Shown here: positions 30,731 to 41,213 of the stretch, one piece after another
How the letters are laid out: every line of letters starts with the position of its first letter
How positions within the stretch are numbered: position 1 is the stretch's first letter
DNA from: a virus
Lineage: Duplodnaviria > Caudoviricetes
IMG/VR virus record: IMGVR_UViG_3300042558_004043
Length of the DNA: 64,000 nt
Strand: one strand, 5' to 3'
The notes under the pieces: model-generated
What the model saw: the letters and a program-made list of their open reading frames with translations, nothing else
Databases searched by the model: none
What the model was told of the DNA's origin: nothing
Position numbers and translations under genes: made by a program

Positions 30731-30754
30731 AAATCTAAAATTATAGGTTTTTTT
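30731..30754 (+). terminator. weak hairpin in the convergent spacer
   Basis: aaatcta / taggttt stem with one G-U pair and a T-tract, between converging genes. Confidence 0.35.
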
Positions 30755-33700
30755 ATGCGTTAGTCACATTCCATGATTTTGGGGCGGCGGTTAATTGAGC
30801 CTTACACCATAAACCTGTTCCTACTGTATTTGATGGACCTGAAGGTGAGGAATTAAACCAATATGTAACGTTAGTTTGATTCTCTAATGATAACTTACCT
30901 CCTGTTGGTAAACCACCAACCGCACCAACTAAACTATTCAAATTACATAAAATAAAATCAACCGATGATTGATTCAAAAGGTTATTCCTCATATCCAATA
31001 GTTTTAAACTTGTTGCTGAACTAAAACTTGTAGACCAATTTACAATTGGATTTGCATTAATGGTTAATCCTGTCAAAGAAGACGGAAAAGAATTTCCTAA
31101 AGGTAATAAATTATATTGATTATTTATTTGGTTATTAGAAATATCTAAAGATAATAGAGATATATTTGAATTTAAATTTGTTAAATTAGTTATAAAATTT
31201 TGGGCTAAAATCAAAGTTAGATTAGTGGTTGTATTTACATAACTTAAATCAAATGTGGTCAAATTGTTGCCAATAAAACTAATACTGTCAGTCGAGGATG
31301 GAAATTGAGTTGACCAACTAGAAAGAGACACTGAATTAAGTATAAAACTTGATAAATTAGTACAATTAATTAAAGGAATATTCCAAGTCGGAAACGTATT
31401 TGTACCTCCGCCAGAACCACCTATACTTTCTGCGTTAAATTTAACTAAACTTGTAGGTAAAGACGTTGGTAATGATGACATACCATTTAAACGATTAGCT
31501 TGTAGTGACAAATTTTGAACTGTATTTGGTAATGGAGGTAATGATAATAAATCGTTGTAAGCTAAATCTAGTGTTATTAAACTTGTGCAAGATATGATTG
31601 TTGGTGTTATTCCGGTGATACGATTGTTACTTAAATTTAAAACTGTCATCAAAGTATTTGATGATAAATTTATATTAAATCCTGACAATCCAAAAGGATA
31701 TCCTAAATTCGCATCTTCAATCCTATTATTGGAAAATAAGACTGATACTACCCGTGTCGGTAAATCATAAGTCCAACCTGTCAAATTATTGTTATTTACA
31801 TGGAATTGACTAACGGTGTTGGTACATGAGGTAAAACCGTTAGGTGCGTTAACATATTTTAATGCACATTTATTATTAGGGCCATGTAATAAAAAAGTAG
31901 TTAGGTTTGTAGGAGGTATAATTGTTACATTAACTAGTTGTACATTATTTTTAAAACTAAAAGTAAAACTCGTAGCAACATTGGTTGAAAAATCATGGTT
32001 TAAGCTGGTTAAATTACATCCCCACATACCAAATGACCTCAATTTAGTTAAATTATCTAATCCGAATGTATTAAATTCTAATGAGGGATTATTATTTCTC
32101 AAAAGAAATAAGTCATTAAAATTAGGAGATATCGAAATACCATTAAGTCCCGCAATTGTACAATCTTCAAAACGCAATTGAAGTAAATTAGCCCAAGTTG
32201 CAAATGTCCATTCATTAGGTATTATTTCAGATATTCTATAAAATCTACCAAATCTTAATTGACTTGTGTCAAATATACCAGCGTTTTGAAAATTTGCAAA
32301 AGTGGCGGTAAAAGAACCGTTAGGGTAACTATGATTGTTTTGTGTGTCTGTAGCCGAGGTAGGACCCACCCCTTCAGTATCACCATCGCCCCAATCTATA
32401 TAGTATTCTTTTGTGGATATGGACCAACTGAACCACGTATAATATTGTGATGGGCTAACTGGATTAATACCAGGTATGTTTTTGAATTGGAAATATGGTG
32501 TTGAACCGGTAAAACTACGGCCAACACATTGGAATGATTGAGACGCTCCTTTAACACCTATAATACCAATATTTTGAGTTGTGCTTGCGGTATAAGGTTG
32601 AACATAATTCACATTGTAAACATTACCATCACTTTGGTCTATAAAATAAAATTGATTATTAACTTGATATGCGGCGTTAGCGTCGGTAATATTTGGGGAA
32701 GGTACCGATGGGCAAGACCCGCATCCTATTACAATGTCTGGAAAATCTCTAGTGTTTGTAATGTAATCGTATTGACTTATGTAGTAATAAGAGGGAGAAC
32801 CCGGATTAGATTGTGTGAATATTACCTTTCCATTTGTTGAAACTAAAATATCACCTGTTACCGTGTTAGGTGTTAACACGCTACCTGGTAGGTCAAACAT
32901 TGGTGTAAATGTTGATGTATTGTCTGGAGATAAATTTAAAGTAATTTTTATCATCCTATCTGGAGTACCTAACGGAGTCCGATTAGTTTCACTACAGATT
33001 AAAATATTAGTACTAATTGCAAATAGTCCTTTACCCATAAATCCGATACCTGATGGAAAAGAAATATCTCTATAAGTACCAAAGGTTAAAGGAGTTAATG
33101 ATAAAATGTCCCACTCTCTGAAGAATTGGGAACCACTTCCTTGACCACCATACATCCAAAATTTACCAGACAAAGTACCTGGATTCCAATAATGAGCAAT
33201 ATCTTCAGAATTAAAAAATCCTGGTATTACTATATTATATAAAGTATTTGCGCTGTGATTATAAAGAAAAAGTTGAGTTGATGTGTTAACAAATATAAAA
33301 CAATCATCTAAAATATTTGGTGGGATATATGGAGTTGTTGGTGTTGGTGTTGGTGTTGAGGTACTTGTTGGAGTTGGAGTTTGTGTTCTAGTTTGAGTTG
33401 GTGTTTGGGTAGGAGTTTGTGTGCTCGTTTGGGTAGGAGTTTGTGTGCTCGTTTGTGTTGGTGTTTGTGTATTTGTTGGCGTTTGTGTTGGAGTTGGAGT
33501 CTGTGTACTTGTTTGTGTTGGTGTTTGTGTACTTGTCGGTGTGGGTGTTGAGGTTGGAGTTGGTGTTGAGGTACATGGTGGGTAAAAAACACAAGATAAT
33601 GCACAAGGGTCAAATAAATATTCATTTGGGCATGTGTAACCACTTGACAAATATTGACCAGATAGATTCTGTATTATTGTTGCGGTTGACTCTCCACTAG

Positions 33701-40996: not shown

Positions 40997-40997
40997 T

Positions 40998-41213
40998 CTA
41001 CAGAGTTAAATTTGTTGAAGTCTCACATCCGTTATCATCAACAATTCTCAAATTAACATCAGGTAATTTCATGAAAATTTTAGGTATTTCAAATTCATAT
41101 GGTGCGGATGTTATTGTATCAATGTATATACAAGTGGTAATTGGATTATCACAAACGTAAACATTGAATGGTGAGGTACCTGAAACGTCATTTATAGTTA
41201 TGGCAACGGACAT
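40998..41213 (-). CDS. 71-aa stand-alone module paralogous to the N-terminus of the 1094-aa protein
   Basis: ITINDVSGTSPFNVYVCD vs VKITDISGVTAPFNIFVCD; VNLRIVDDNGC vs VGVKLEDNVC. Confidence 0.8.
   Translation of the reverse strand: MSVAITINDVSGTSPFNVYVCDNPITTCIYIDTITSAPYEFEIPKIFMKLPDVNLRIVDDNGCETSTNLTL

Follow-up and report, generated by a model that had tools for sequence, protein, structure and literature searches.

Large myophages such as CBA120, with its tailspikes TSP1-4, and RaK2, with its fibre genes, carry branched sets of several receptor-binding proteins (RBPs), which, as generally described, are encoded by adjacent genes, combine conserved N-terminal docking modules with exchangeable distal heads of binding or enzymatic function and differ among close relatives. 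A cassette of four genes, gpD, gpC, gpB and gpA, on the minus strand of a 64,000-nucleotide stretch of Caudoviricetes DNA (hereafter the window; part of the 97,966-bp viral record IMGVR_UViG_3300042558_004043, for which CheckV estimates a completeness of 33%) encodes proteins which, by analogy, appear to belong with phage host-adhesion proteins and to work like these exchangeable RBP gene sets. The trait which marks RBPs among close relatives, a conserved proximal part joined to an exchangeable distal part, is found in the cassette. The architecture is distinct: CBA120 and RaK2 display rigid trimeric beta-helix spikes with defined adaptor domains, whereas the cassette proteins possess long low-complexity Thr/Pro spacers and single-chain heads. 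An adaptor domain of the multi-RBP type was not recognisable in them with Pfam and PHROGs, and the folds seen in the models (a single-chain propeller, a leucine-rich repeat (LRR) solenoid and low-complexity linkers) would not require trimers. The explanation that we favour, and to which we give about an even chance, is that the cassette encodes virion-borne, probably sugar-coated, flexible adhesins that would aid host adsorption; as part of the same explanation, the source would be a T4-related lake phage of Bacteroidota with a genome of approximately 300 kb. Gene structure, folds, mosaic pattern, module transfer and the association of such proteins with GT60 glycosyltransferase clusters in relatives can be read from sequences and models, whereas a place on the virion, glycosylation, ligand binding and a part in adsorption are what the favoured explanation would add.

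Besides the multi-RBP sets, other systems are similar in part. T4 Hoc, as discussed for the adherence of bacteriophages to mucus, is generally regarded as an adhesive and accessory monomeric string of small domains held off the particle, as the cassette proteins may be. Hoc consists of four Ig-like domains encoded by a single conserved gene and has no Thr/Pro stalks, while the cassette belongs to many paralogues with swappable heads and a probable phage-made sugar coat. Thr/Pro-linked glycoside hydrolases and type IX secretion system (T9SS) adhesins such as SprB, on the other hand, are known for Thr/Pro-rich, often O-glycosylated linkers between globular modules, and resemble the cassette proteins in this arrangement. 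The T9SS adhesins differ in that the cassette proteins are phage-encoded and have neither a Sec signal nor a Pfam match to Por_Secre_tail or SprB, SprB repeats being present only in neighbouring plus-strand proteins. In the literature, no description was found of single-chain heads on low-complexity stalks, with many paralogues and a mucin-type sugar link, in phages.

The four open reading frames (ORFs) are located between a plus-strand RuvC-like gene (30121-30720) and a plus-strand primase gene (41298-42200), and their products are composed as follows (module borders in residues):

40998-41213, minus strand: gpD, 71 amino acids (aa), opens the cassette and repeats the first gpB module as a separate protein
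38351-40996, minus strand: gpC, 881 aa; Cys-rich module 1-146, Thr/Pro linker 147-166, module 167-274, Thr/Pro linker 275-295, predicted five-bladed propeller 296-565, Cys-rich C-terminal region 566-881 with 17 Cys
35067-38351, minus strand: gpB, 1094 aa; N-terminal region 1-161 (gpD-like 1-67 followed by a Cys-rich part), Thr/Pro linker 162-358, beta-rich module 359-479, Thr/Pro linker 480-769, divergent propeller head 770-1094
30753-35027, minus strand: gpA, 1424 aa, GTG start; N module 1-61, Thr/Pro linker 62-257, possibly PA14-like module 258-480, Thr/Pro linker 481-571, propeller 572-850, cap with a WGDG motif 851 to about 920, predicted LRR solenoid from about 925 to 1424

The arrangement as four coupled, co-oriented genes that run against both flanking operons, proposed in a first-pass annotation of this DNA, could be confirmed: a single base, 40997, separates gpD from gpC, and the gpC stop codon overlaps the gpB start codon as TAATG at 38351. 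A 39-nt gap which holds the promoter-like motif TATTTAT lies between gpB and gpA. The GTG start of gpA is supported because the homologues of relatives begin with ATG at the same residue (MPTV...). The partition of the three large proteins of 881-1424 aa into globular modules and Thr/Pro linkers was likewise borne out, while the fourth gene, although co-oriented and coupled as described, turned out to be a detached N-terminal module.

Part of the evidence for the adhesin reading comes from the comparison with relatives. The RuvC and primase flanks are 97-99% identical in two of them, L001 and G001, the latter a complete genome of 321,403 bp with terminal repeats (RuvC 99%, primase 98% identical to the window). 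L001 retains the gene order of the cassette and has a gpD with 100% identity, and towards the N-termini of gpA, gpB and gpC identity amounts to 92-100% (100% over gpC 1-200, 96-100% over gpB 1-150 and gpA 251-450), whereas the distal parts reach 24-70%, with only 24-48% for residues 351-450 and 601-800 of gpC. In addition, L001 gpB ends after the second linker and is without a head, and L001 gpA contains an additional 77-aa module. The G001 cassette comprises five genes (71, 849, 1223, 422 and 1634 aa), the modules of which are 48-80% identical to those of the window, a divergence that equals that of the SprB-repeat proteins of the baseplate operon (54-56% to their G001 counterparts, among neighbour genes at 88-99%). 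Heads have also changed places: the gpB head of the window shares 64% identity with residues 399-709 of the gpA homologue in G001, where gpA of the window has its PA14-like module, and the best G001 match of this latter module (48%) resides in a 2305-aa protein of another cluster 100 kb away. Linker lengths differ between relatives, for example 290 versus 217 aa, or 75 plus 412 aa, and two further variants, L031 and L032, have other linker lengths and other third and fourth genes. The check suggested in the first-pass annotation, whether the cassette varies while RuvC and primase stay fixed, hence came out in favour of its interpretation, with a gene number of four or five, linker length, heads and module order that vary between nearly identical flanks. 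The first-pass annotation had regarded an invariant cassette with fixed linker lengths and module order as contradicting its interpretation, and the variation encountered is the opposite.

The extra 422-aa gene of G001 (L009 16227-17495), situated between the gpB and gpA homologues, has no Thr/Pro tracts and a sub-threshold Pfam similarity to NAL1_N (20.5 bits). At the same position, L032 (6320-8041) encodes a protein of 574+ aa in which a Thr/Pro stalk succeeds a globular N-terminal part of about 420 aa; by size and position, this may be the 422-aa protein fused to a stalk.

Pfam, PHROGs, PDB sequences and tblastn against 50,697 phage records did not link the cassette proteins to any known family of tail fibres, tailspikes or baseplate-attachment proteins, and nucleotide and protein searches of these records with the region, gpC and the C-terminal half of gpA gave no match. 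An identical cassette is present on other lake contigs, one of 162 kb, and cassette DNA occurs in at least 19 lake or freshwater runs, 10 of which are possibly the source sample itself. When contigs from three DNA runs of lakes and from an RNA run of sediment were placed on 27001-44000, the contigs of the phage itself were short and window-identical, and the Thr/Pro repeats recruited much unrelated DNA (depth up to 1197 in 36073-36639) and gave rise to many joints with short sides, which are repeat artefacts; the sediment RNA run contributed only pieces mostly below 95% likeness.

The linkers, six by a composition scan, extend over 20 to 290 aa and amount to 815 aa in total, with 40% Thr, 21% Pro and 11% Ser, and their DNA consists of tandem repeats that are imperfect and have periods between 6 and 192 bp:

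36433-36890, minus strand: largest imperfect tandem repeat within a Thr/Pro linker, 192-bp unit, 2.4 copies, 80% matches
33336-34826 and 36255-37788: many shorter linker repeats

In lake metagenomes the Thr/Pro-coding repeat DNA at 36073-36639 reaches a contig depth of 840-1200 at 85% likeness, and many other genomes in those lakes must consequently carry similar Thr/Pro tracts. PHROG 15511, which matched gpA and gpB, did so on Thr/Pro tracts and was treated as a low-complexity match. The globular parts of the cassette proteins contain 2.94% Cys, compared with 1.11% in the rest of the proteome of the record, and small modules reach 5-7%; neither a hydrophobic N-terminus nor a membrane segment was found in the four proteins. 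Cys-rich globular modules without a signal peptide fit an action outside the cell after lysis.

Among the heads is a propeller family of wide occurrence. A profile built exclusively from gpC relatives matches gpA 571-849 (E 1e-28) and gpB 994-1065 (E 2e-6), gpB being alignable along the full domain, as well as the C-terminus of a SprB-repeat protein encoded by the baseplate operon (E 1e-5, residues 760-929), where again the full domain can be aligned. All aligned copies have a near-invariant Cys close to each end of the domain (C7 and C249), a pair which suggests a disulfide that closes the propeller. An AlphaFold2 model of gpC 296-565, based on a 19-row alignment, has 20 strands at a mean predicted local distance difference test score (pLDDT) of 89.5 and a predicted template modelling (TM) score of 0.88, and reads as five four-stranded antiparallel blades arranged in a ring. 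The claim that each large protein contains a paralogous propeller-like domain is thereby upheld, by the profile for gpA and gpB and by the model for gpC. All Foldseek matches of the model are propellers, kelch domains included, the best viral ones being uncharacterised proteins of an uncultured virus (TM 0.72). The cassette propeller also recalls the platform of phi11 Gp45 (PDB 5efv; PMC4901313), which differs as a trimeric baseplate protein with coiled-coil stems and without Thr/Pro stalks, from an unrelated host and phage type. A Pfam match to gpC or its propeller was absent at E up to 0.1 and up to 5, Kelch, YWTD, NHL and DUF5122 families gave no above-threshold match to the propeller, and the family is without a Pfam or PHROG model; judged by sequence, it is a new domain family. 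A profile search of 1.84 billion representatives retrieved 576 metagenome clusters, 462 of them below 1e-10, and single proteins contain as many as four copies. Among 40 long members, the partner Pfam domains are Fib_succ_major (10), DUF5122 (3, as a domain separate from the propeller) and SprB (3), besides DUF285, Beta_helix and LRR, and three sampled genomic contexts of family members are phage-like.

The copy in the baseplate operon connects the cassette heads with the upstream plus-strand genes, which form a T4-type baseplate module in which nine large or unknown proteins follow the gp6/J-like gene up to 30117:

6519-6965, plus strand: gp25-like gene, start of the baseplate operon
6971-8809, plus strand: gp6/J-like gene of the baseplate operon
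22141-25014, plus strand: SprB-repeat protein of the baseplate operon (Pfam SprB, 60 bits), with the fourth propeller copy at its C-terminus, residues about 728-957

Two proteins of this operon, of 957 and 878 aa and encoded within 22141-27684 on the plus strand, carry SprB repeats and are, by sequence, probable fibre proteins. Since the first of them has the propeller at its C-terminus, the same head is also present on a protein encoded in this structural operon.

The second assigned fold is the LRR array, which the first-pass annotation had rightly placed at the end of one protein, gpA. Pfam LRR_4 scores 27.5 bits on the fragment (cut-off 27) and 26.1 on the whole protein, homologues carry LRR_4 and LRR_8, and a model of residues 851-1424, folded with seven homologues (pLDDT 83), contains a regular LRR solenoid of about 500 aa from approximately residue 925, which by Foldseek resembles the solenoids of SHOC2, LGR5, TLR8 and YopM. 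Module-wise structure prediction, suggested at the outset as a check, thus delivered binding-type folds for the gpC propeller and the gpA LRR region. A PKD module, on the other hand, could not be substantiated: the cap formed by the first 70 residues of this fragment has, in seven homologues, a (W/L/F)GD(G/A/L) motif, mostly WGDG, with invariant G and D, while PKD models (PF00801, PF18911) found no match at E up to 5 and the structural model shows four short strands at pLDDT 33-57. For gpA 258-480, the nearest language-model cluster (score 0.92) has PA14 (PF07691) in 13% of its members, a weak lead, and no Pfam or PDB sequence match was obtained. The gpB module 359-479 matches phrog_13374, a family of unknown function. 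Over all four proteins, Pfam recognised LRR_4 in gpA alone, and PHROGs returned low-complexity matches, phrog_13374 and one LRR-like family. No catalytic domain was found in the cassette proteins.

As kelch-like propellers and LRRs are classic protein-protein adaptors, with kelch domains and YopM among the Foldseek matches, the proteins could also be intracellular host-takeover adaptors, the propeller and LRR parts of which would recruit host proteins, much as kelch and LRR proteins do in eukaryotic viruses and among bacterial effectors. This is the weakest of the rival explanations and is considered very improbable: 815 residues of mucin-like linker together with modules of 5-7% Cys would be uncommon in the cytoplasm, the domains that accompany the propeller in its family are of surface-adhesin types, and the baseplate-operon copy as well as the linkage to a glycosyltransferase of family GT60, discussed below, point outward.

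The N-terminal modules are the constant part of the cassette. gpD is related to residues 1-67 of gpB (37% identity, z 17.8 against shuffles), has 71 aa in all five variants with 35 of the 71 columns invariant, and occupies the same position in L001, G001, L031 and L032. It has no Pfam, PHROG or PDB match, and profiles of the gpD and gpC families, as well as individual modules, gave chance-level matches only when compared with PDB sequences. The idea, raised by a shared W..CLSD motif, that gpD and gpC represent a split copy of the gpB N-terminal region was discarded (gpB 68-161 versus gpC 1-100, z -0.6), and a kinship of gpA 1-61 with gpD or gpB 1-67 was not supported (z 0.4 and -0.5 versus shuffles). 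A complex prediction for gpD with gpC 1-146 scored 0.13, where the mark is 0.32, and was counted neither way. For a BppU_N-like baseplate domain, suspected in the N-terminal parts of two distant relatives, P0019 and P0169, neither Pfam nor PHROGs gave support.

In the complete relative G001, the cassette is one part of a larger family: 19 ORFs contain Thr/Pro tracts, and 8 proteins have 10 propeller domains between them. These are concentrated within the cassette and a second cluster, the latter at 29-57 kb. Common to the second cluster and the cassette are the N module of gpA (52% identical, opening a Thr/Pro protein), the beta-rich gpB module 359-479, which recurs five times in three other G001 proteins there, and, as a paralogue with 32-40% identity, the propeller-LRR head in its entirety. 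The cassette had been portrayed as a modular receptor-binding system; the modularity stands, while the cassette is not self-contained and represents one of the two clusters that this genome-wide family forms. Approximately 6 kb downstream of the second cluster starts a sugar-transferase cluster led by a GT60 gene (PF11397, 223 bits); methyltransferase domains of CmcI-like and FtsJ-like type are encoded there as well, besides HtrL_YibB:

G001 63077-64327 (L017 6077-7327): GT60 gene

GT60 enzymes of Dictyostelium and T. cruzi add N-acetylglucosamine to Thr in Thr/Pro-rich mucin-like repeats, for example PTVT, and so initiate mucin-type O-GlcNAc chains. In the distant phage L002, GT60, GT25 and HtrL_YibB genes and a fusion of multiple glycosyltransferases directly adjoin a Thr/Pro propeller protein, and GT60 homologues with 45-48% identity are encoded by the cultured jumbo phages XacN1 (47% to G001), Xoo-sp13, CM1 and RAS14. 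By the gene content of relatives, the Thr/Pro stalks would probably be O-glycosylated by a GT60-led cluster of the phage.

The GT60 enzyme of the clade is very widespread: among 8000 scored candidates, E 1e-30 is attained by 7210, and among the matches listed identity is 76-92% on contigs of up to 263 kb; it is far better conserved than the adhesin genes.

Virus-encoded glycosylation of virions, in which the virus's own glycosyltransferases act on structural proteins, has been described for mycobacteriophages and giant-virus fibrils and suggested for XacN1. Mycobacteriophages glycosylate short C-terminal tails of capsid and tail-tube proteins (Freeman et al. 2023, as cited in PMC12619734), whereas the presumed acceptors in the cassette would be hundreds of residues of mucin-like linker in modular adhesins. 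Proteomic analysis of XacN1 virions revealed at least two glycoproteins, suggested to be made by phage enzymes (PMC5852040). XacN1 ORF325 (L034 30192-40133), a hypothetical protein of 3314 aa whose gene adjoins that of a baseplate wedge protein, contains a pair of short Pro/Thr/Ser linkers towards the C-terminal end, with a carbamoyl transferase and a GT9 gene nearby and the GT60 homologue also present.

The glycosyltransferase cluster linked to Thr/Pro proteins in relatives, the number of paralogues per genome and a beads-on-a-string design that is probably monomeric and closer to Hoc than to trimeric fibres also suit virion decoration without a role in host choice or infection. Hairs similar to Hoc or giant-virus fibrils, with a glycosylated coat and sticky heads, would then shield the particle, slow its decay or its loss to grazers, or keep it attached to algae, slime or particles in places rich in hosts; as cited in PMC12619734, mycobacteriophage virion glycans are described as a shield. 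Fixed anchors combined with heads that diverge as quickly as the baseplate-operon SprB proteins are, however, more typical of host-range determinants. The presence of one propeller copy in that operon also speaks against decoration, which is regarded as possible, though rather doubtful.

The candidate promoters proposed for the cassette are present, and both are kept in G001:

41231-41237, minus strand: promoter-like motif TATTTAT, 24 nt before the gpD start, a distance kept in G001
35042-35048, minus strand: promoter-like motif TATTTAT, 21 nt before the gpA start, 23 nt before that of the gpA homologue in G001
48648-49448, plus strand: sigma-70-family sigma factor (phrog_351, 184 bits; Pfam Sigma70 regions 2 and 4 in the identical contig L004)

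Of 87 TATTTAT copies in the record of the window, 31 are placed 7-45 nt upstream of a start codon on the same strand, where 2.0 would be expected; in G001 these numbers are 97 of 274 and 6.1. The motif precedes the gp25-like baseplate gene, an 1815-aa gene of the baseplate operon and genes of the other Thr/Pro cluster, and the phage sigma factor is, by sequence, a candidate reader of it. TATTTAT resembles the T4 late promoter TATAAATA, and occurs, among other positions, at 6495-6501, 8863-8869, 18122-18128, 43045-43051, 53614-53620 and 61572-61578, also before an SLT lysozyme-like gene and many small genes. The divergent intergenic region 41214-41297 contains, besides TATTTAT on the minus strand for gpD, a sigma-70-like TTGACA on the plus strand about 40 nt before the primase start, which suggests two promoter classes back to back. 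Beyond the end of the window, G000:C1 92779-96670 harbours a tandem array of about ten paralogous minus-strand genes for proteins of approximately 100 aa (24-62% identical), most of which have TATTTAT 12-13 nt ahead of the start.

Several points weigh against virion-borne adhesins. The N-terminal modules of the four proteins have no known virion-attachment domain in Pfam, PHROGs or PDB. The cassette is encoded on the opposite strand beside replication genes and outside the baseplate operon. TATTTAT also precedes a DnaB-like helicase gene (copy at 1007-1013), so that the motif marks a phage promoter class and does not prove late expression. GT60 is absent from the 98-kb record of the window itself (33% complete), the 162-kb contig with the identical cassette does not extend to such a cluster, and the glycosylation link is drawn from relatives. 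The separation from the structural operon and the lack of a recognisable attachment domain (Pfam, PHROGs), together with Cys-rich modules, which suggest a place outside the cell, though not necessarily on the particle, would also suit soluble non-virion proteins that are freed at lysis and bind host envelope or debris, by which receptors on dead cells might be masked, cells glued or decoys provided. Such a function is judged unlikely, since N-terminal modules conserved to 92-100% while the heads vary call for a fixed partner, most simply the particle, since the gpA N module recurs on a Thr/Pro protein of the other cluster, and since the baseplate genes have the TATTTAT motif as well.

With a fixed N-terminal partner and exchangeable distal heads, the virion would be the most economical partner and adhesion that aids adsorption the most economical role; the adhesins would assist adsorption rather than trigger infection. 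Adhesins on the virion fit the RBP-type mosaic, the traffic of heads at linkers and the binding-type folds predicted. They fit as well the propeller copy within the gp25/gp6 baseplate operon and the TATTTAT motif shared by cassette, baseplate and Thr/Pro-cluster genes, and they are consistent with the adhesin-like partner domains of the propeller family, the high Cys content without an export signal and the GT60 link in relatives.

Mechanistically, a conserved N-terminal module would dock each protein to the particle or to a sister protein, followed by one to three extended Thr/Pro stalks, which would be O-glycosylated within the infected cell by the cytoplasmic GT60-led cluster and thereby be stiffened and shielded from proteases. 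At about 0.25-0.3 nm per residue, a stalk of 290 aa would have a reach of approximately 70-85 nm. The outer heads, namely propeller, beta-sandwich, PA14-like module, Cys-rich knots and LRR solenoid, would bind glycan or protein ligands, on the host surface or elsewhere. The repetitive stalk DNA may also act as a joint where one head can replace another, drop out or pass from gene to gene, with the consequence that related phages would bear different head sets on the same anchors. A further-reaching version, put forward tentatively and thought to be rather wrong than right, is a combinatorial adhesin system with fixed anchors, glycosylated mucin-like stalks, stalk DNA as a built-in recombination joint and heads shuffled among about ten genes in two clusters, by which each lineage would display different monomeric heads.

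Host recognition is the least predictable part of the genomes of uncultured phages, and the clade concerned is abundant in lakes. None of the adhesin modules of the cassette is in Pfam or PHROGs by name as an adhesin family, and more than 7000 close GT60 homologues are on record. If virion-borne adhesins are encoded here, a conserved anchor combined with a Thr/Pro stalk and a propeller or other head would provide a receptor-binding gene signature for aquatic jumbo phages, and a non-trimeric, mucin-like design would be added to the repertoire of phage appendages. Phage-encoded mucin-type O-glycosylation would gain a concrete substrate, and virion glycosylation in phages of Gram-negative type would become directly testable. 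The combinatorial system, if true, would represent a mode of host-range diversification distinct from the swapping of trimeric fibre tips and from mutagenesis by diversity-generating retroelements.

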